Source of the DNA: an uncultured Clostridia bacterium
Lineage (GTDB): Bacteria; Bacillota; Clostridia; Christensenellales; UBA1242
DNA length: 49,615 nt
Assembly (NCBI GenBank): GCA_944364445.1
Contig: CALVWC010000002.1
Span: 1 to 49,615 of the forward strand
Direction: 5' to 3'
Every line of letters starts with the position of its first letter. The stretch's first letter is position 1. Under the pieces are notes generated by a model. It was not told the DNA's origin and made no database searches. It saw nothing but the letters and a program-made list of their open reading frames with translations. Position numbers and translations under genes: made by a program. This document shows positions 36,825 through 46,087 of the stretch, one piece after another.

Positions 36825-37160
36825 TTATTTTTTCTTCCAACCACAGTTTGAGCATTGTTCTTCGTCTTCCCATATAGGAAAGCCACATTTTTTGCAAAGG
36901 ATATATTTACCATTATTTACCTGTTCTTCCGGCAAATCTTCAACTTGTTCTATAATTTGTTCATTATCTTTTTTTATTATTTTCTTTTTGGAAATATCAG
37001 GAAGTCCAGCACTATAAATCAAGCCGATTATTCCAAACAAAAAACCAATCCAAAAGCCACCATTATAACCTTTTTTATGTTGCAAATCCATACTCAAAAA
37101 GCCGGATATGATCCAAAAAATTATTGCAAAAATAATTGCGATTATTGTTCCTATGTCCAT
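36825..37160 (-). CDS. small membrane protein with C-terminal zinc-ribbon (CxxC...CxxC)
   Basis: Two TM helices, then CKKCGFPIWEDEEQCSNCGW. The 17-bp hairpin at 36794-36832 covers its stop codon. Confidence 0.55.
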   Translation of the reverse strand: MDIGTIIAIIFAIIFWIISGFLSMDLQHKKGYNGGFWIGFLFGIIGLIYSAGLPDISKKKIIKKDNEQIIEQVEDLPEEQVNNGKYILCKKCGFPIWEDEEQCSNCGWKKK

Positions 37161-37203: not shown

Positions 37204-37250
37204 TGGTGGACTGCCAGGGGCTCGAACCCTGTACCCATTGATTAAGAGTC
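37204..37250 (-). pseudogene. orphan 3' portion of a tRNA-Lys(CUU) gene (positions about 30-76); left att-type repeat of the island
   Basis: The reverse complement reads GACTCTTAATCAATGGGTACAGGGTTCGAGCCCCTGGCAGTCCACCA. It matches the intact tRNA-Lys at 45477..45552 over the T arm (20 nt identical) and the anticodon loop (11 nt identical). Confidence 0.8.
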
Positions 37251-37443: not shown

Positions 37444-38757
37444 TTAATCTATATTAAATCTACTATTTAAAGTTTCGCCTATAAGTTTTGCTCGTTCCTT
37501 TTTCTTTTCTGCGAAAATGTTTGCGTAATATCTTTCAGTAGTTTTTATGCTTTCATGCCCTAGATACTGCTTTACCTCATATAAGTCCATACCCATATCA
37601 ATTAGATTTGAAGCACAGGTATGCCTTAAATCATGCCACCTTGTATGAGGCTGAAAATTACACTTTTTTAGTAGTTTGTTGTAAGTGTGAGATAAATAAC
37701 TTGGTGTTATTAAACTTCCATCTTCATGCCTAAAAATAGGGTTAAATTCCATTATACCTTTTTTGTCTTGTAAGTTATAAGGTATAGAAAAAATCTTATT
37801 ATTTTCTTTCCATAAACTTTTATCTTGGCTTTTTACATAATTTTTTATCATGTTAGCAAATTGCTTTGGCATAAAGATTTCTCTCTGTTCGTTTGATTTT
37901 GTATTATTTATAAAGGCTTCATTTTCATTGTTATAATCTAAACTTTTTGATATTAAAACCTTATTCTTTTCAAAATCAAAATCGGCAAGTTCTAATGCAC
38001 ATAATTCGCCACGCCTTACACCTAAATACAAAGAACTTAGCCAAGGCATTTCAAGTTTTTTATAAAAACTTTCAGGCGGATTTTTTATTATCTCTAATAT
38101 TTTCTTTTGTTGTTCAGGTTCTAAAATGGTTATTGGTTTTTTAGGAATAACTACTTGCAGTTTAAAAGTGTCCTTATCAAACTTGTTATACTTAGCTGGG
38201 TTTTTCTCTTTATACACCTTTTCATAGATTGCTAGGTCAAAAATAGGTGATAAAAATTTTGAATAGTGGCTGATAGTATTTTCAGTTCGTCCTTTTGCTC
38301 TTAAATGTTTATAAAAGCTTAAAATATCTTGTTGAGTTATCTCGGTTATCTTTTTATTTTTGAAAAACTTTTCTAAAACATTTACATTTGACTTATAGCC
38401 TCGTTTGGTGTTTGAACGATTTTTCTCACTTTTAATACTTAAATATCTCTCTGCATATTCTTTTAAAGTGTATTCAAATAGTTCTTTACTTTCTACTTGC
38501 AATTTACTTTCATATTCCATTATAAAATCTTTCAGTTTTTGAATGCAGATTTCAGTTGCTTTCGTTAAGTTTCCTTTTTCGTTTAAACCTGTGCTTAACC
38601 ATTTTGGAGTGCTTTTGTGCTTCTCGTGATTGTAATAGTAAAAGTATCCATAATACATTTTATTGGTTTCATTTATGAATATTTTAAGATTAAAAAGTTT
38701 ATTTTCATTGTTTACTTTTACTGATACACTCAATGTTTTACTTTTGTTTTCTTTCAT
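37444..38757 (-). CDS. int: tyrosine-type site-specific integrase
   Basis: C-terminal catalytic motifs (GVRRGEL..L, HDLRHTCASNLI, LGHESIKTTERYY). Adjacent to the att repeat. Confidence 0.92.
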   Translation of the reverse strand: MKENKSKTLSVSVKVNNENKLFNLKIFINETNKMYYGYFYYYNHEKHKSTPKWLSTGLNEKGNLTKATEICIQKLKDFIMEYESKLQVESKELFEYTLKEYAERYLSIKSEKNRSNTKRGYKSNVNVLEKFFKNKKITEITQQDILSFYKHLRAKGRTENTISHYSKFLSPIFDLAIYEKVYKEKNPAKYNKFDKDTFKLQVVIPKKPITILEPEQQKKILEIIKNPPESFYKKLEMPWLSSLYLGVRRGELCALELADFDFEKNKVLISKSLDYNNENEAFINNTKSNEQREIFMPKQFANMIKNYVKSQDKSLWKENNKIFSIPYNLQDKKGIMEFNPIFRHEDGSLITPSYLSHTYNKLLKKCNFQPHTRWHDLRHTCASNLIDMGMDLYEVKQYLGHESIKTTERYYANIFAEKKKERAKLIGETLNSRFNID

Positions 38758-38761
38758 TTGC

Positions 38762-38971
38762 TCACTCCTTTGAGTTATTCATTGTTTGGCTATTTATGTA
38801 AGTGATTAGTTCACTCTTCATAATTCGCCATTGACGACCTATTTTAAAACTTTTGATTGCTCCACTTTGTAAAAGGCTGTAAGCGAATGTTCTTTTAATG
38901 TTCAATAAAAGACACAAATCTTCAAAAGTTAAGATGTCGCCATAATCTTCTAATTTTGCTTTGTTTCTCAT
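38762..38971 (-). CDS. xis: excisionase-family / MerR-like helix-turn-helix DNA-binding protein
   Basis: LTFEDLCLLLNIKRTFAYSLLQSGAIKSFKIGRQWRI resembles excisionase-type HTH_17. Preferred ATG at 38971 follows GGAGAAGGAG. Lies immediately upstream of int. Confidence 0.7.
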   Translation of the reverse strand: MRNKAKLEDYGDILTFEDLCLLLNIKRTFAYSLLQSGAIKSFKIGRQWRIMKSELITYINSQTMNNSKE

Positions 38972-39250
38972 GACTCCTTCTCCCTTTTTTCGGGACGACA
39001 TCTCATAACTAATCATACGGATTTCTCTGCAAAAACCAAGTCTTAGCATAAAAATTTATAATGATTTTCTATGAATAGTCCCTGACTTTTGTTTTAGTAT
39101 TAGACACTGTTGATGTATCTTTTATTCCTTTGTGTTAGTTGATTACTAATGTAAATCAGTTTTTGAAACTATTTTTAAAAAAATTCACCTCCTTTATTTT
39201 AGTTTCATATATATTTTACTTGGCACCAAAAATTTCTTTTTTGCTATATT

Positions 39251-39270
39251 ACATGACATGTAATTTTTAG
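39251..39270 (-). promoter_or_regulatory. candidate operator, copy 1 (ACATGACATGTAATTTTTAG), upstream of xis-int
   Basis: Near-identical to 41744-41762. Contains the palindrome ATTACATG-A-CATGTAAT (39248-39264). Confidence 0.45.
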
Positions 39271-39311
39271 GGTATTTATATGTTAATTTTACACTTGACA
39301 GGCAAAAATAT

Positions 39312-39337
39312 AGGAACCACTATAAAAAATGGTTCCT
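39312..39337 (-). terminator. hairpin terminator of the cargo operon
   Basis: AGGAACCA-loop-TGGTTCCT, 40 nt downstream of the stop at 39379. Followed on the minus strand by ATATTTTT. Confidence 0.65.
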
Positions 39338-39378
39338 TATTAGGTTTTGAAATCTCATATAAATGCCTTTAAACGAAA

Positions 39379-39855
39379 TTATTTTTGATTTTGTAAACTT
39401 ATATAGATGTCCGCTATACTTTCAGTATCATTATCTTTAATTGTTAAACTTAATTTCTTAGCCACATCATGCAATCTATAACTATTGAGTTTTAAATTTT
39501 CTTTTGCCATGTTTAAAACATCAATATTTTTATTTTTAATCTTTGTAAAACGACTTAAAACAGGAATATCAAAGTTTTGCGAGTTGTAGCCGATAAGTAG
39601 ATATCTTTTTATAAATCTCTTTAATTTTTTGATTGCTTGCGTTAATTGTGGGGCAGAGTCTAAGTCTTTTTGATTTATATTAAGAATGTTTAATATTTCG
39701 TTATCTAAATGTTTATTAGGATTTATAAAAGTTGAAAACCTTTCTTTTACTTTTTGATTTTTATATTTAATAGCGTCTATCTTTACTAACTCACAAGTGT
39801 TTATATCTACACTTGTGGTTTCTATATTGAATGCTATAAATTTATGATGTTTCAT
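39379..39855 (-). CDS. DEDD (DnaQ-like) 3'-5' exonuclease-fold protein with non-canonical catalytic positions
   Basis: Exo I-like FNIETT (Asn where Asp is expected), Exo II-like GYNSQNFDIPVL, and no clear Exo III H-x4-D. RBS AAAGGAG. Confidence 0.65.
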   Translation of the reverse strand: MKHHKFIAFNIETTSVDINTCELVKIDAIKYKNQKVKERFSTFINPNKHLDNEILNILNINQKDLDSAPQLTQAIKKLKRFIKRYLLIGYNSQNFDIPVLSRFTKIKNKNIDVLNMAKENLKLNSYRLHDVAKKLSLTIKDNDTESIADIYISLQNQK

Positions 39856-39866
39856 TTAACACTCCT

Positions 39867-40442
39867 TTATCTTAAAATAATTATAAGAATAACTACAATT
39901 GCTATTACGACGATAAATGAGAATAAAACTACCTTTTTAATTTTTCTATTTTTAGTCTTTTTTGCCTCAATATAACACTTTTCAATATAATCTTTGGTAT
40001 AGTTCTCTTCAAGTGCTATATAAGCATTCATTTTATCTATACAAGGCTTCAAAGTATTATTGCTTATTTGGTTTAATTTGGATTTGAACTCTTCTATTTT
40101 TTGCAAGGACTGATTAGCAATAGGATTATAATAAGGCATAAAATACCCATTATGATTAGTTGGTATTTCATTGCATATTAAGGGAATTAAAACTTGTAAT
40201 TCTTCTTCATTTTTCTTTTCGATTTCTTTAAGATAATCTAAAATTTCATTAGGAGTAAATGAAAATGATTGAGTTTTGCGATTTGCTTTATCTTCATGCT
40301 TTAAAAAGTATTCATATAAGGCTTTTGCTCTTTTATCTTCTGGGTATTTCAAATAAGCCTCTAAACTTAATTTAGATGCCACTCCATTTTTTGATATTTT
40401 GGCATTATCATATATAAGAGATATATATTTTTCTAATTCCAT
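39867..40442 (-). CDS. hypothetical protein with C-terminal transmembrane anchor
   Basis: Soluble helical region of about 165 aa, then KKVVLFSFIVVIAIVVILIIIL. Its start overlaps the upstream stop (TAATG). Confidence 0.55.
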   Translation of the reverse strand: MELEKYISLIYDNAKISKNGVASKLSLEAYLKYPEDKRAKALYEYFLKHEDKANRKTQSFSFTPNEILDYLKEIEKKNEEELQVLIPLICNEIPTNHNGYFMPYYNPIANQSLQKIEEFKSKLNQISNNTLKPCIDKMNAYIALEENYTKDYIEKCYIEAKKTKNRKIKKVVLFSFIVVIAIVVILIIILR

Positions 40443-41662
40443 TATTGCCTCGAATGTTTTCTTATTAACTCTATTAAGTTTTGATTATTTAAAATATTGT
40501 CAATATTGTCATCACATGAAAGAACGATTTCTCTTTCTTCTACTAAAAGTTTTTGTAATAATTGAAAAAACTTATCTTGTTCATTTAATTTATTTTTTAA
40601 AAACTGAATATCTGTAATTATGATAAGTTTATAACCCATATATTCATGAACCATTTCCCAGGTTAAGCCTTTACAGAGCATAAGGTCATTGCAAAATTGT
40701 TCGCATGTTATATTTAATATTTGTTCTTTTGAAAACGATTTCGCTAACTTATTTATTTGGGATTTTAAGTTTTTTGCACTATCATTTAAAATTGTAATGC
40801 TCTTATTTTGATAAGTGTGTCGTCTTATTAAATCTATTGCCCATTTTTCTGCTTTTTCATCATTGATAACTATTTCTTGACAGCGAGCAGGGACTTTATA
40901 TTGTCCTAACTCATCAAAACCTTTCTTATCATCTAAACTTTTATATGAGGTTTTGCAACCACTCAATTCTTTAACTTTCCAAGAAGTCTTATTTGTATTA
41001 TCATTATCTCTATCGGTCAAGTTTAAACTTACTGTATAGTCTAATATTCCATAACCTTTTAAATTATTATCAAAGGAGCAGATATCTTTTGCAATATAAA
41101 TCGTATTGTTTTTTATATCTTTATATTTTTTCTTGTTCCAATGTGGTTGATATTTAAGCCATGGATATTTCTTTTTTAATTTCTTTCTTTCAGACCTATT
41201 TAGTGTTTCAGGCTTAATAATTTCTCCAATTTGCATATAGCCCCAAATAACATGCTTGCCTTGCTTTGTAATTTTATTCTCACTGATAAGATTACAATAG
41301 GAGCCATAAAATAAGAATAAATCTCCAACTTTTACAGAATTATTTTCTAAGTGTGTTTGAAAGCCTTCAATCTGTCCTAGGCTGCCTTTAAAGTTTTTAC
41401 AATTAAAATAATTTTCTAGTTGTGGGTCTAGGTGGCAATGCGTTTTAAGAAAAGACTTGTATTTTCCAGCCTCATCACTTTTCATAACTTTTGTGAAAGA
41501 TTTTATATAACTCTCTATATTACCATATTTCAATTTATCGAATTTGTCTGGGATTGGAACGAATTCAATTTTTGTTGTTTTATCATGCCCGATAGGTATA
41601 GGTAGCAAGCACAATGATTTAAAACTACTATCTAAACCTTTTTTACTTAAAATGACTTTCAT
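40442..41662 (-). CDS. fusion protein: uncharacterised N-terminal domain (possibly Nmad3-like) plus truncated DnaA-like AAA+ core with degenerate Walker A
   Basis: N-terminus: MKVILSKKGLDSS...CHLDPQL...LGQ...HL...VKVGDLFLFYG...HVIWGYMQIGEI. C-terminus (aa 283-406): ITCEQFCNDL...YKLIIITDIQFLKNKLNEQDKFFQLLQKLLVEEREIVLSCD, which aligns by eye to DnaA domain III. Confidence 0.6.
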   Translation of the reverse strand: MKVILSKKGLDSSFKSLCLLPIPIGHDKTTKIEFVPIPDKFDKLKYGNIESYIKSFTKVMKSDEAGKYKSFLKTHCHLDPQLENYFNCKNFKGSLGQIEGFQTHLENNSVKVGDLFLFYGSYCNLISENKITKQGKHVIWGYMQIGEIIKPETLNRSERKKLKKKYPWLKYQPHWNKKKYKDIKNNTIYIAKDICSFDNNLKGYGILDYTVSLNLTDRDNDNTNKTSWKVKELSGCKTSYKSLDDKKGFDELGQYKVPARCQEIVINDEKAEKWAIDLIRRHTYQNKSITILNDSAKNLKSQINKLAKSFSKEQILNITCEQFCNDLMLCKGLTWEMVHEYMGYKLIIITDIQFLKNKLNEQDKFFQLLQKLLVEEREIVLSCDDNIDNILNNQNLIELIRKHSRQ

Positions 41663-41743
41663 AATTACACCTCACTTGTAAGAATAATATCATAAAATGT
41701 ATTTTTATGCAAGAAAATGCACTTATAAATGCAAATTATCTTT

Positions 41744-41762
41744 CATGTCATGTAATTTTTAC
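41744..41762 (-). promoter_or_regulatory. candidate operator, copy 2 (CATGTCATGTAATTTTTAC), in the divergent cargo-operon/XRE control region
   Basis: 18 of 19 nt identical to copy 1. On the minus strand it sits in the spacer of a plausible TTGTAA-18-GATAAT promoter. Confidence 0.45.
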
Positions 41763-41820
41763 AAGTTTTATGAAAGGGAGTGCAAGCCTATTGTCAATTA
41801 TAATTTGTATGAGGTGTAAA

Positions 41821-42129
41821 ATGAATAAAGATGATGTAGTTTTAAGAATAAGTCAAGCGAGAAATAGGGCAGGGCTTTCTGCTCGTGATTTAAGTTTAAA
41901 AATAGAAAAGAATGAGGCTTACATATCAAGGTTAGAGTCTAAAAAAGGTAGTTTTGAGCCATCAGTTTCTGCCTTACTTAATATTATTTCGGTTTGCGGA
42001 ATGAGTGAGTGCGAATTCTTTTATTATGACTTAAATCAATATGATAAAGATAAACAGTTGATTGAACTTTTGAGAAAAGTTAAACCTGAGATTAAAGACT
42101 TAATGATTGCATTATTAAAAAAGATATAA
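41821..42129 (+). CDS. XRE-family repressor of the island
   Basis: HTH (RNRAGLSARDLSLKIEKNEAYISRLES). ATG at 41821 follows GAGGTG. Divergent from the cargo operon. Confidence 0.8.
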   Translation: MNKDDVVLRISQARNRAGLSARDLSLKIEKNEAYISRLESKKGSFEPSVSALLNIISVCGMSECEFFYYDLNQYDKDKQLIELLRKVKPEIKDLMIALLKKI

Positions 42130-42193: not shown

Positions 42194-42238
42194 GTATTCT
42201 AACTTAATTGATAATAAATCAATTAAGTTGTAGAATAC
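42194..42238. terminator. long hairpin between the convergent XRE and primase-helicase genes
   Basis: GTATTCTAACTTAATTGAT-AATAA-ATCAATTAAGTTGTAGAATAC (one 2-nt bulge). Confidence 0.6.
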
Positions 42239-44100
42239 TAACCCTGATTGAATAGGTTAGTGTTGGTTTCTTCAATCTCTTTATAAAGATTATATGCAGG
42301 GAAAAATTCATAGAATATACTTTCGCCAGCAAGTCCAAATCTATTTTTTAAAAGTATGAGTTCAATCTCTCTTGGATTTTGTTTTTTGGCTAAATCTATG
42401 TCAAAATCTTTTCCTGTGTTTTTGTATTGCATGCCTAAAACTACTTCTGCCGAGAACTCAATGCCACCACTTTCTTTAATACTTTGCATTGATATCTTTT
42501 GAGTGTAGGCATCACGATTGATTGAACTGATTAAAATAATAGGCACTTCAAATTCTTTTATACACTTTTTCATTAAAGCCATAAGTTTGTCCATGTTTTG
42601 TTTATCACTGAAAGAGTCATTTAAAGAAGAGATAAGTTGCATATAATCCACAATAACCACAGGCTTTTTATTCCTTTCCTGTATGTGCTTTTTAATCGTA
42701 TTATAAATATCTAATGCGGTTATTCCATTATTATTTTCAACCACAAAAATATTATTTGCATATTTTCGATAGTTATCTTTTGCTCGGCTTATCACATTCA
42801 TTTCATGCTCTGAATAACTAACATAATGATATGGATTAGAAATCTCGCTTGTGCTTTTTCGGTTAACTGATGGTTCTGTTTCCGCTATAATTCTTGATAA
42901 AGACTTGGCTATTAGTTGATACTTTGACATTTCAAGCGAAAAGATTAAAACATCACTGCCTTGCTTTGCTGTGTAATCGGCTATCTGCATGGTGAAAGTA
43001 GTTTTGCCTAGTGAAGATATAGCACATAAGACATAGATATATGCTCTTAAACCGCCGTCTAACATTTTATCTAACTGATTAAAACCTGTTGAAAGCGGTT
43101 TTGAGTTTTTATTTTTCTCAATATAATTTTCAAAATCAGTCAAAGCATGATAGTTATTAAGTTTATTATATTCGCTTTCTTCTGCTTGTTTCTGCTTGTT
43201 TTGATTTTTCTCTTTCAATATCATATCAACTATACTATGGGCTTGTTTTGAAAAGTTTTCAGCCGATTTCATAAACATTTCGTTAGGGTCTTTATAAATT
43301 CCTAAATCAAAACTTTTCGGCTCTTTAAAGCCTAATTCAATAAGTTTCGCATATAGTTTCTTTTGCTGTGTTTTTCCTGTTTCGTCATTATCAAGAGCTA
43401 AAACAAAAGTAATATTCTTATCTTTGAAAGTGCTAAATATAAGGTTTATATTTTCAGCACTACGCAGACCGACAGCATGAACTCCAATCTGTTCAAAACT
43501 CATAGCGTCAAACTCACCCTCACATACAAAACAATAATCTAGGCAAGTTTTGGCTGACGCCACTTGCCAGTTAAATAACTTAGTTTCTTCCTTTCCATTA
43601 TTCTTTTTATACACTCTTTTATCTTTATCATTTTCTAAATTTCTAATAGTGTATTGCACAGCACTTACAGGTATAACTAGATTACCATACTCACTTGCAT
43701 AGCCAAGTTTAAATCTTTTAATAGTATCTAAATTAAAACCTCTTGAAAAAATAAAACTCTTAGCCTTTTCATCATCTAGTAACGACTCATGCCAATAATC
43801 AAACTTAGTCTTATCTTTGATTTGAGTAGGGAGATATAACTCGCATGCTCTTTTATATGCCTCTTTTTCATTCAAGTTTTCTTTAAATCTTATTAGATTG
43901 AATAAGTCATAATATTGACCACATGCATGACAGTATATCGCCTTTTTATTCTCATAAAATGTAGCACTAGGATGTTTATCTAAATGATTTGGATTAGGGC
44001 AGGTGTATTGTTTTTTATCTATTAAACTCTCACCGAAATTTCCTTGATAATAATCTTTGATAAAAGATTTTAAATTTTCAGTTATTGCATCGTTTTTCAT
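42238..44100 (-). CDS. bifunctional DNA primase / DnaB-like replicative helicase
   Basis: CHC2 zinc finger (CPNPNHLDKHPS...CHACG), Toprim (CEGEFDAMS, ALDNDETGK), and a DnaB/RecA-like C-terminus (SSLGKTTF Walker A, VVIVDYMQLI Walker B). Confidence 0.88.
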   Translation of the reverse strand: MKNDAITENLKSFIKDYYQGNFGESLIDKKQYTCPNPNHLDKHPSATFYENKKAIYCHACGQYYDLFNLIRFKENLNEKEAYKRACELYLPTQIKDKTKFDYWHESLLDDEKAKSFIFSRGFNLDTIKRFKLGYASEYGNLVIPVSAVQYTIRNLENDKDKRVYKKNNGKEETKLFNWQVASAKTCLDYCFVCEGEFDAMSFEQIGVHAVGLRSAENINLIFSTFKDKNITFVLALDNDETGKTQQKKLYAKLIELGFKEPKSFDLGIYKDPNEMFMKSAENFSKQAHSIVDMILKEKNQNKQKQAEESEYNKLNNYHALTDFENYIEKNKNSKPLSTGFNQLDKMLDGGLRAYIYVLCAISSLGKTTFTMQIADYTAKQGSDVLIFSLEMSKYQLIAKSLSRIIAETEPSVNRKSTSEISNPYHYVSYSEHEMNVISRAKDNYRKYANNIFVVENNNGITALDIYNTIKKHIQERNKKPVVIVDYMQLISSLNDSFSDKQNMDKLMALMKKCIKEFEVPIILISSINRDAYTQKISMQSIKESGGIEFSAEVVLGMQYKNTGKDFDIDLAKKQNPREIELILLKNRFGLAGESIFYEFFPAYNLYKEIEETNTNLFNQG

Positions 44101-44151
44101 ATTTTATTCACTCCTATATAATTTTATTTTTTTAAGATTTATTTTATATTT

Positions 44152-44267
44152 TGACGGCTGGCGTAAGCCGTCAAGCCGTCAAGATTATTATTAAGCCTTA
44201 GGGCTTAATTCTTAAAGACTTTTTTTAGATTTATTAACACCTTTAAAGCCTTGTATTTAAAGGTGTT
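44152..44267. other. cluster of three perfect hairpins plus a tandem AGCCGTCA repeat (candidate ori / single-strand initiation region)
   Basis: TGACGGCT/AGCCGTCA (44152-44173) with a second AGCCGTCA at 44174-44181. TTAAGCC/GGCTTAA (44191-44208). A 12-bp AACACCTTTAAA/TTTAAAGGTGTT (44236-44267). Confidence 0.5.
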
Positions 44268-44334
44268 TAGCCTTTTTAATCTTTCGTAAAATAAAACCGA
44301 TTAGTATCGTTTGAATATTGTTAGAGTTTGCTTT

Positions 44335-45279
44335 TCAGGGTGGACGGATTTCATTTTTTGTGTTCTCATCGGTTGGTATCGTTTCTTCAACTTTTCCTAA
44401 CTCTATTTTGCTGTTGTGTGCTGACTTTTTGAAAGAAAAGTGCATTTTTAGTTCTAAAAATTGATATAAACTTATTTTCTTTAAGTGTTGTTTAGTGTTA
44501 TTTAAGTCCACTAAATACCAATCAATGATATTAGATAATCTTTTCATATCTCGCATGAAAGGATTTATTATTCTTTGATTTGTTTGTCCTGCTTTTTTGA
44601 TTTCTGTATAGTTTTTAGGTATATCAGGGCAATAGTCTAAAAGAGTTCTTATTAAGATATTATTCACTCTTTCGGGCTTGTTTCGATTAATATTATTTAG
44701 ATATGATAAAGCCCATAAAATGTAAAAAGAGTTGGGGTTTAAGTGGGTGTCTATCCTAAAAATTTCAGTTGATAAAATCATTTTAGGAAAGGTGTTGTAA
44801 AGTTGTATAAAATCTTCGTTTAAGATTATTTGTATTTCGCCATTTGAAAATTTTGTATAACTGCTAAAAATATTCATTTTAAAGGTGTCTATTACTGGCT
44901 TTTTATCTTTACCTATCTTGTTATAATTTCTATCTTTAAAACCTATATGAAAACTTAAAAGGCTGCTTAAATCTTGATTTATCTTTCTTCTTGCACTTAC
45001 AGGGTTAGATATGTTTCTAAGTTCCATATAATCTTTAAGTGGAATATTGATAGTTCGATATTCTTTTGTAAGGCTTAATGCACTTGCTTTCACTAAAATG
45101 AAAATAAATAGTTGTAGTGTTGACGGCTTTAAATTTAATTCTTTCGATTTGTCGAGAATAAAATAAAATTCGTTTGTGCCTATTGTTTCTTTAAGGTTAT
45201 CTACCTTATATAAATTTTTGTTAAAAGTGATTAAGTTGTTGATTACATTTTTTTGTTTAATTTCTACATATTCGTCCAT
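44335..45279 (-). CDS. putative replication initiator / DNA-binding protein of the island
   Basis: 314-aa ORF (ATG 45279 follows GGAG by 6 nt), upstream of the primase-helicase. The call rests on position only; no motif was recognised with certainty. Confidence 0.4.
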   Translation of the reverse strand: MDEYVEIKQKNVINNLITFNKNLYKVDNLKETIGTNEFYFILDKSKELNLKPSTLQLFIFILVKASALSLTKEYRTINIPLKDYMELRNISNPVSARRKINQDLSSLLSFHIGFKDRNYNKIGKDKKPVIDTFKMNIFSSYTKFSNGEIQIILNEDFIQLYNTFPKMILSTEIFRIDTHLNPNSFYILWALSYLNNINRNKPERVNNILIRTLLDYCPDIPKNYTEIKKAGQTNQRIINPFMRDMKRLSNIIDWYLVDLNNTKQHLKKISLYQFLELKMHFSFKKSAHNSKIELGKVEETIPTDENTKNEIRPP

Positions 45280-45426
45280 AAAAATCTCCATTTTTTATAA
45301 ATTTTTTTGATTTTTATCTTCGAACATAGAAAACTGCATAGAAAAATGATATTTACACTTTCTGTAAACACCTTATAATCTCAAAAAATTTTTATTTTCT
45401 ATGGTTTAATTTTGTGTAATACATAG

Positions 45427-45476: not shown

Positions 45477-45552
45477 TGGTGGATTGCCAGGGGCTCGAAC
45501 CCTGGACCCTTCGATTAAGAGTCGAATGCTCTACCAACTGAGCTAGCAATCC
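45477..45552 (-). tRNA. tRNA-Lys (anticodon CUU), CCA encoded
   Basis: Hand fold: acceptor GGATTGC/GCAATCC, D arm GCTCAGTTGGTAGAGC, anticodon stem TTCGA/TCGAA with loop CTCTTAA, T arm CAGGG-TTCGAGC-CCCTG, ACCA. Confidence 0.92.
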
Positions 45553-45582: not shown

Positions 45583-45622
45583 GATTAAGAGTCTCGTGCT
45601 CTACCAACTGAGCTAGCAGTCC
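45583..45622 (-). pseudogene. orphan 5' portion of a second tRNA-Lys(CUU) gene (positions 1-40)
   Basis: The reverse complement reads GGACTGCTAGCTCAGTTGGTAGAGCACGAGACTCTTAATC, then diverges into non-tRNA sequence. Its acceptor strand GGACTGC is complementary to GCAGTCC of the orphan 3' piece at 37208-37214. Confidence 0.75.
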
Positions 45623-45734
45623 ATATGACTTTCATTGCGTTACAATTTCGGCTAATTTTTCAACTTTTCTCTATTTTACTTAAATTTTGTGGAAAAGTTG
45701 TTAATTTTTTAGCGTGCAATAAAAAACTATGTGT

Positions 45735-45783: not shown

Positions 45784-45957
45784 TTATGATTTTGTTTTTA
45801 TTTCTCCATGAAGCCTTTCAAAGTCGGTTATGTAGCGCTTTATGGCAATTTCAATCTCCTTGTTTTTTGAGCGAGCGTTATATTCGGCTGTGCATTGAAG
45901 TTTTTCGTGTAGTGTTGTGGAAATTCTCAGTGTAAACCTTGGATAATTGTGTTCCAT
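45784..45957 (-). CDS. ribbon-helix-helix (Arc/CopG-like) DNA-binding protein
   Basis: MEHNYPRFTLRISTTLHEKLQCTAEYNARSKNKEIEIAIKRYI fits a beta-alpha-alpha RHH pattern. ATG at 45957 follows GGAGGTGA. Confidence 0.6.
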   Translation of the reverse strand: MEHNYPRFTLRISTTLHEKLQCTAEYNARSKNKEIEIAIKRYITDFERLHGEIKTKS

Positions 45958-46087
45958 ATTTTCACCTCCATATAAAATTTTACTAAAAATTTGGCAAATT
46001 TCCATTCAAATTTTGCAAAAATTATATATTTTCGACATATTTCGACATCAAGATGCACAAATTAAACTTTAAACATATAAATTTACT

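Follow-up and report, generated by a model that had tools for sequence, protein, structure and literature searches.

The locus described here raises the question of why a small integrated element should carry, next to its repressor, a three-gene operon in which two of the parts resemble replication enzymes that have lost their catalytic residues. It lies in a 49,615-nt stretch of DNA from an uncultured Clostridia bacterium (contig CALVWC010000002.1; this whole stretch is referred to as the window), on an island inserted at a tRNA-Lys gene, and the three genes, all on the minus strand, are designated A, B and C. A preliminary description of the window, made without database searches, had placed the operon among the accessory cargo of a satellite and had likened its logic to that of abortive-infection or defence systems. 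We find that the composition of A-B-C is an undescribed combination, matching no described system. Protein A appears to join an intact domain of the Nmad3 family to a stub of DnaA domain III and C to be a degenerate exonuclease; the stub and C are the parts that seem to be strictly coupled, and B is an optional component.

Open reading frames (ORFs) for A, B and C were found at the positions given in the preliminary description (Table 1), together with the features from which a tight operon had been deduced. The stop codon of A and the start codon of B overlap by 1 nt at 40442 (TAATG), and B is separated from C by a spacer of 11 nt (AGGAGTGTTAA, 39856–39866). A, B and C form one translationally coupled operon. 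A hairpin followed by a T-run is likewise present where a terminator had been proposed (39312–39337); the scan for such structures returned two sites in 3.3 kb, versus 0.7 expected. The residues that had been singled out in the proteins were also quoted correctly, namely AKN at 296–298 and ITD at 349–351 of A, and an Asn (N10) in place of the first catalytic Asp of C.

Residues 2–246 of A match Nmad3 (nucleotide modification associated domain 3, PF18754) with 123.6 bits, against a gathering cut-off of 27. The invariant columns of this family were taken from alignments of 27 and 70 family sequences, the window protein included, and all of them are present in A (K8, D11, C76-H77, P80, G96-Q97, H174, W228, Q262-E263, and W274). 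Such an invariant set points either to an enzyme or to a pocket specific for a ligand, and the Nmad3 domain is the only plausible candidate for a catalytic component of the module. The domain is modeled with confidence (pLDDT 89, pTM 0.90), and comparison of the model with the PDB and BFVD gave no significant structural match (best PDB E = 0.08). Weak, non-significant matches were recurrently to PUA-like modified-base readers, such as McrB-N, THYN1/EVE, PH1033, and ASCH. As all of these are weak and non-significant we treat them as a lead, and do not assign the fold to the PUA-like, EVE or ASCH groups. The literature that was searched contained no mention of the Nmad3 family; the names of the Nmad domains are said to come from Iyer et al. 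in 2013. A typical member of the family either stands alone as a protein of about 280 aa or occurs paired with, or fused to, Nmad2. A differs from such members by its C-terminal DnaA stub, which is found only in a tiny clade (P0001–3 and P0015).

This C-terminal tail matches Bac_DnaA between residues 299 and 390 (E = 1.5e-9, profile positions 51–144 of 162), as well as positions 159–247 of the DnaA equivalog TIGR00362, in the latter case with 38.8 bits against a cut-off of 343.9. Foldseek places it, with a probability of 1.0, with DnaA domain III and with Hda. In the alignment, 'ILNITCEQFCND…LIIITDIQFL…QDKFFQLL…EIVLSCD' of the tail stands opposite 'ILYITCERFTND…LLVDDIQFL…QEEFFHTFN…QIVISCD' of DnaA; the tail has the fold of DnaA domain III and Hda, with the DnaA signatures at β2, the initiator-specific helices, Walker B, and sensor I, and like Hda it is a DnaA-core-only polypeptide. 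Only 33 matches were obtained among 1.84 billion representative proteins, consisting of the tail's own small family and then genuine DnaAs at 30–35% identity. The tail is, as judged by sequence and predicted fold, specifically DnaA-derived. One further candidate relative, P0126 (921 aa), was discarded as a spurious match to a coiled-coil repeat protein.

AAA+ ATPase activity needs the standard AAA+ motifs. The Walker A motif (GxxGxGK[ST]) was not found in the tail, where the position reads ILNDSAKNL, and neither was the Walker B acidic pair (hhhhDD/DE), which is replaced by IIITD in the window and by TN, KS or TS in the orthologues. The tail furthermore lacks the lid, sensor II, and domain I or the DNA-binding domain IV, as the chain ends near box VII, about 25 residues past the sensor I strand. 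Because the motifs that define the AAA+ class are absent, the tail is predicted to be ATPase-dead and unable to act as an ATPase, an ATP-dependent initiator or a regulator of the RIDA type (regulatory inactivation of DnaA). Profile matches and motif check therefore agree with the initial view of A as an uncharacterised domain, now recognised as Nmad3, fused to a DnaA-like core without a P-loop.

Protein C matches RNase_T (PF00929; E = 1.2e-14, 55.7 bits versus a cut-off of 24), and further TIGR01405 (polC, 3.5e-23), PDB entry 2p1j (5.6e-12), and phrog_192 (1.1e-20). It is most similar to the exonuclease domain of PolC and to phage proteins annotated as 'DNA polymerase exonuclease subunit'. With the DEDDh exonucleases of PolC and DnaQ (ε), C has in common its fold and the catalytic residues E12, D96, and D143, three out of five, but the first Asp of Exo I is an Asn (N10) and the His of Exo III is missing. 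The preliminary description had noted both changes in the window protein; the resulting pattern, N-E-D-(no His)-D, with two of the five catalytic residues lost, was borne out in all five C orthologues. In the alignments the full DEDDh set is present in relatives at approximately 30% identity, namely the standalone exonuclease of the Clostridioides difficile phage phiCD506 and two proteins from bacteria. C is probably a binding protein and not a nuclease. Since C has a ratio of nonsynonymous to synonymous substitution rates (ω) of 0.15–0.23 and is the best-conserved gene of the module, it appears to be a maintained pseudo-nuclease and not a decaying gene.

Protein B is a helical protein with a C-terminal hydrophobic transmembrane anchor that is preceded by basic residues; the anchor is conserved. 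Profile searches, PADLOC included, gave no family match for B, and only two related clusters were found among 5.8 billion proteins. Its ω is 0.28–0.39, and that of the tail 0.28–0.30. All measured parts of the module (C, the tail, and B) are under purifying selection.

Island variants with 99%, 84%, and about 66% identity have the same arrangement, XRE-A-B-C-xis-int, and the trio can in this sense be said to be conserved as a unit. Two loci with a different architecture refine this view. In locus L001 (4381–6838), located between rplM-rpsI and truA, the XRE gene, the operator, A (65% identical, with the tail kept), and C are intact, the integrase, the replication genes, and B are absent, and an 80-bp remnant of the 5′ end of xis follows C. 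L001 thus looks like a decayed island that has kept XRE-A-C. The place of B is taken in L001 by an 18-nt gap, and B is a lineage-restricted, optional component; the membrane anchor that had been described in B is there, but B does not belong to the core of the proposed trio. In locus L111 (706–1635; P0005, 309 aa), a different N-terminal domain of 172 aa is fused in frame to the same tail, followed by B and C. From window position ~40879 on, the tail of L111 is 98% identical to that of the window at the nucleotide level; the breakpoint is sharp and in frame, and upstream there is a Helicase_C gene. L111 represents either a domain exchange that occurred in nature or a chimera made by the assembly. 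A ParB-like nature of the N-terminus of P0005 is not confirmed by Pfam; there is only a weak match to Noc (E = 0.011).

Wherever the architecture could be assessed, the stub and C were found together (the window type, L001 without B, and L111), and close relatives of A that lack the tail also lack C (L113 at 67% identity, L085–L089 and L004 at 45–48%). The real coupling in the operon therefore appears to be that of the DnaA stub with C. As a general gene pair, Nmad3 with a DEDD protein was rejected, as a C-like gene adjoins Nmad3 only in L001 among 81 loci. More distant loci bearing the tail or C were not found in JGI metagenomes or IMG/VR, and the lineage with tail and C is confined to a few gut-metagenome contigs.

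The tail-less relatives L004, L085–L089, and L113 are small Clostridia elements with a Rep gene (PF23343, rolling-circle-type), a divergent XRE gene, Nmad3, a variable slot, and a different integrase. What follows Nmad3 in the slot is in some of them a 48-aa zinc-ribbon protein with a polytopic membrane protein and in others a soluble protein of about 106 aa. XRE and Nmad3 thus seem to form a conserved front end across related elements with other Rep and integrase genes. Taken together, the module can be read as three layers: the XRE-Nmad3 front end, the strictly coupled DnaA stub and C, and the optional membrane protein B. We regard A-(B)-C as an accessory module carried by an integrative element and not simply as free cargo; XRE and Nmad3 stand beside the switch in the related Clostridia elements as well, and the stub, B, and C are the lineage-specific additions. 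A HEPN_AbiU2 gene flanks the integrase in L086–L088.

Nmad3 neighbourhoods were compared at 80 genome loci from bacteria and archaea. The sole recurrent partner of Nmad3 is Nmad2 (PF18753), which is located immediately upstream on the same strand at 20 of the 80 loci (including L026, L038, L045, L047, and L058) and is fused to Nmad3 in P0098. No homology between Nmad2 and Nmad3 was detectable (hhalign probability 0.35%). Other neighbours vary between loci, and approximately 75 of the 80 are not on elements of the kind described here. Nmad3 was absent from 50,697 phage genomes and is rare in IMG/VR and plasmids.

Comparison with known defence systems agrees with the earlier impression that no named system matches: PADLOC, the PDB, phage genomes, and the literature gave none. 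In PADLOC-DB v2 there is no system-level match for A-B-C, the individual hits being limited to Cas5a for A (0.032) and a generic Cas-associated DEDDh model for C, with none for B. In the literature that was searched, neither DnaA-like proteins nor dead exonucleases were described as components of defence systems or satellites. Scattered matches to type I restriction-modification, MADS, and reverse transcriptase genes occur among 148 neighbours of Nmad3, a set to be read without a background for comparison. A parallel comes from DS-4/NTTI, a validated anti-phage system from DefensePredictor with a thymidylate synthase, a deoxynucleoside monophosphate (dNMP) kinase, a 5-hydroxymethyldeoxyuridine (5-hmdU)-kinase-like protein, a TIR protein, and Nmad2 (PMC13092281). 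DS-4/NTTI thereby contains the commonest genomic partner of Nmad3, but it is devoid of Nmad3 and of a DnaA-like or DEDD protein, and the window is devoid of Nmad2. The 'NMAD' of DefensePredictor was considered as Nmad3 and rejected, as it is Nmad2, which is non-homologous to Nmad3. By association, the presence of Nmad2 in DS-4/NTTI may provide an indirect link of Nmad3 to defence.

How the operon is controlled can be read in part from the region between A and the XRE gene. The preliminary description had given the operon its own repressible promoter region at 41663–41760. A promoter-like site (TTGTAA-18-GATAAT) is indeed overlapped there by an operator-like palindrome at 41741–41755, of the form 7-1-7 (TTTCATG-T-CATGTAA), but the region extends further. 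Because relatives start likewise, the XRE start is most likely at 41821 (102 aa) and not at 41707, which makes 41663–41820 the divergent control region. The promoter scan was not above chance (24 sites versus 22.5 expected); it is therefore the palindrome, present between XRE and A in L001, L082, and L084 as well, that speaks for a regulated promoter. XRE homologues adjoin Nmad3 in L001, L002, L004, L085–88, and L113, and the Nmad3 relatives nearest to A likewise have a homologous XRE gene in divergent orientation. The identity of the window with L001 is mosaic, with 97–100% for XRE and the promoter and a fall to 70–85% in A from its start codon.

A second, perfect copy of the palindrome (TTACATG-A-CATGTAA) precedes xis, and this copy occurs in the sub-lineage of the window and L084 only. 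The segment from terminator to xis (39100–39400) is just 50–60% identical in every comparison (L001, L082, and L083), so that the second copy is specific to the window sub-lineage. An operator common to xis-int as a general means of control was for this reason rejected.

Taken together, these observations point, tentatively and with odds that we put below even, to A-(B)-C as a derepression-triggered, replication-directed interference or defence module in which dead domains would serve as adaptors. On relief of XRE repression, A and C would be made together, with simultaneous induction of xis-int in the window sub-lineage. The stub and C, as non-catalytic adaptors, would act as mimics or decoys and couple the activity of Nmad3 to complexes that initiate replication, or to primer termini, in the host, an invading phage or a helper phage. 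The coupled Nmad3 would interfere with the targeted replication, while the element replicates through its own primase-helicase. Where B is present, it could tether the assembly to the membrane or add a membrane effect. Physical cooperation of the stub with C, an enzymatic role of Nmad3, replication as the target, and interference or defence as the outcome are what we infer. A more specific form, in which the dead copies of the DnaA core and of PolC proofreading dock as mimics on replication complexes or serve as decoys for phage proteins that inhibit host replication, and so target or trigger Nmad3, we regard as unlikely on present evidence. That the function would not serve the mobility of the island is suggested by the retention of XRE-A-C in the decayed L001 and by Nmad3 genes that are scattered and often mobile. 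The original proposal of abortive-infection or defence logic can be argued indirectly from this retention and from the Nmad2 link, but it finds no counterpart among PADLOC systems.

Several points weigh against interference or defence. That PADLOC holds no matching system is one, and an enrichment of defence genes around Nmad3 is not demonstrable from the 148 neighbours, which come without a background set. The link through Nmad2 is guilt by association, the two domains being non-homologous. The lineage with tail and C is very narrow, and their co-occurrence therefore rests on few independent events, of which L111 is possibly a chimera. Expression only upon derepression is unusual in defence systems. 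The second operator copy is not conserved beyond the window/L084 lineage, and where Nmad3 stands next to a repressor, as it does in several element types, a role in the life cycle of the element would be as good an explanation. According to such a life-cycle role, A and C would aid island replication or a takeover of the host replisome after induction and do nothing against phages; the stub could, for instance, cap host DnaA, recruit it, or load factors at the origin of the island, and C could dock on PolC or primer ends. We consider this somewhat unlikely, though it accommodates that Nmad3 is the first gene of a derepressed operon beside XRE in elements with different Rep and Int, that the operon and xis-int have a common operator in the window sub-lineage, and that both dead domains come from replication proteins. 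A replication helper would however be purposeless in L001, which keeps XRE-A-C although int and the replication genes are gone, along with most of xis; moreover, the large majority of Nmad3 loci are not on such elements, and the related elements without tail and C evidently replicate.

Interference by an adaptor-guided Nmad3 has also to be set against readings in which Nmad3 or the operon as a whole does something else. Nmad3 might add or remove a modification on DNA or nucleotides, with the stub and C linking it to newly replicated DNA for self-marking or evasion of restriction, a suggestion prompted by the family name and the association with Nmad2, by the consistently PUA-like character of the weak structural matches, and by N6-methylase genes near Nmad3 in 5 of 80 loci. 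We find it distinctly unlikely, as every one of those structural matches falls short of significance, as no methyl- or group-transfer domain or cofactor motif was identified in Nmad3, and as Nmad3 is absent from sequenced phages, where hypermodification pathways occur. An addiction or toxin-antitoxin-like cassette, in which A (with or without C) is toxic and XRE is the repressor or antitoxin, would explain the persistence of the cassette in the decayed L001, and it is in line with the conserved pairing of XRE and A with an operator and with an XRE and promoter that are near-identical between lineages whose A has diverged. XRE and A are nevertheless divergent and not co-transcribed, which is atypical of type II systems, most Nmad3 genes are without an XRE neighbour, and searches of Pfam and PADLOC gave no toxin family match; we give this explanation a slim chance. 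Still less probable is that the three genes are unrelated, co-transcribed passengers, with C and the tail as decaying remnants. The dispensable and nearly orphan nature of B and the loss of catalytic motifs in both tail and C would suit that explanation, but ω values of 0.15–0.30 for C and the tail, translational coupling, and the co-occurrence of tail and C across rearranged architectures all speak against it.

The island itself measures 8.3 kb and is bounded by 47-nt direct repeats that are 91% identical (37204–37250 and 45477–45523). Its G+C content is 0.25–0.31, versus approximately 0.36 in the flanks, and the same island was found at the same site on more than 20 metagenome contigs. On the transcribed strand the gene order is the 318-aa gene, the primase-helicase gene, XRE (on the opposite strand), A, B, C, the terminator, xis, and int. 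The operon accordingly lies between a recombination module (int/xis, 37444–39049) and a replication module (primase-helicase, 42238–44100), as the preliminary description had it. The 318-aa protein (44335–45291) had no match in family and profile searches.

Table 1. Positions of the island genes, control elements, and attachment (att) sites in the window.
Feature	Position	Strand	Remarks
attR	37204–37250		left island end; displaced copy of the tRNA-Lys 3′ half
Tyrosine integrase (int), 437 aa	37444–38757	minus	Phage_integrase 1.8e-26; phrog_1 3.3e-56
Excisionase-like HTH_17 protein (xis)	38762–39049	minus	PF12728 1.3e-12
Second operator-like palindrome TTACATGACATGTAA	39249–39263		upstream of xis, between terminator and xis
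Intrinsic terminator of A-B-C	39337–39312	minus	10-bp stem, 6-nt loop, T-run
Gene C	39379–39855	minus	158 aa
Gene B	39867–40442	minus	191 aa
Gene A	40442–41662	minus	406 aa
A, C-terminal part (aa 284–406), predicted DnaA domain-III stub	40445–40813	minus	Bac_DnaA 1.5e-9; Foldseek
A, N-terminal part (aa 1–283), intact Nmad3 domain	40814–41662	minus	PF18754 1.4e-35
Promoter-like site for A-B-C	41764–41735	minus	TTGTAA-18-GATAAT; overlaps the palindrome at 41741–41755
XRE-family repressor	41821–42129	plus	102 aa; divergent from A; HTH_3 8.9e-6; phrog_3 repressor
Primase-helicase, island replication gene	42238–44100	minus	Toprim + DnaB_C
318-aa protein	44335–45291	minus	first gene of the replication operon; conserved across island copies
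tRNA-Lys(CTT)	45477–45552	minus	3′ half 45477–45523 = attL, right island end

Phage-inducible chromosomal islands are small elements with an integrase, an excisionase, a divergent repressor, a replication gene, a tRNA integration site, and an accessory slot. The window element has all of these features, as do other small integrative elements, and within its att repeats it carries the integrase, repressor, and replication module by which a satellite is recognised. It differs from phage-inducible chromosomal islands in that no packaging, capsid-remodelling or terminase genes are recognised and no helper is known; among its eight ORFs none was recognised as a packaging or capsid-redirection gene. 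The earlier assignment of the operon to satellite cargo is thus compatible with the layout, but is not backed by packaging genes or by relatives of the tail or C in IMG/VR, and that the element is a phage satellite is a hypothesis.

Further observations concern the replication end and the borders of the island. A candidate for the island replication origin is the intergenic region 44101–44334, which separates the 318-aa gene from that of the primase-helicase. It is rich in G+C hairpins (TTGACGGCT/AGCCGTCAA and AACACCTTTAAA/TTTAAAGGTGTT) and also contains a tandem AAGCCGTCAAGCCGTCAAG and a direct repeat of 16 nt. Directly upstream of the intact tRNA-Lys gene, at 45583–45626, lies the truncated 5′ half of a second tRNA-Lys(CTT), extending through the anticodon arm, which suggests an older integration or a deletion at the same hotspot. 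Just outside attR, between pnp and the island, a protein of 111 aa is encoded (36825–37160) that has two hydrophobic segments in its N-terminal part and a zinc ribbon at the C-terminus, and an ORF of 73 aa (45784–46005, minus strand) is located outside the island between the tRNA-Lys genes and alr.

New anti-phage and interference mechanisms have already come to light in the accessory modules of small integrative elements and satellites. The present module is unusual among these in that two of its parts appear to be pseudo-enzymes, from a host replication initiator and a replicative polymerase, which are under selection and always found together. The Nmad3 family, to which the N-terminal part of A belongs, spans bacteria and archaea, and its confident model has no significant match among solved structures. 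If A and C aid the life cycle of the island instead, they would show a minimal element manipulating DnaA and PolC. If the stub and C do act as mimics or decoys, the module would represent an undescribed way to target or sense DNA replication, and would provide the first biological role for Nmad3.

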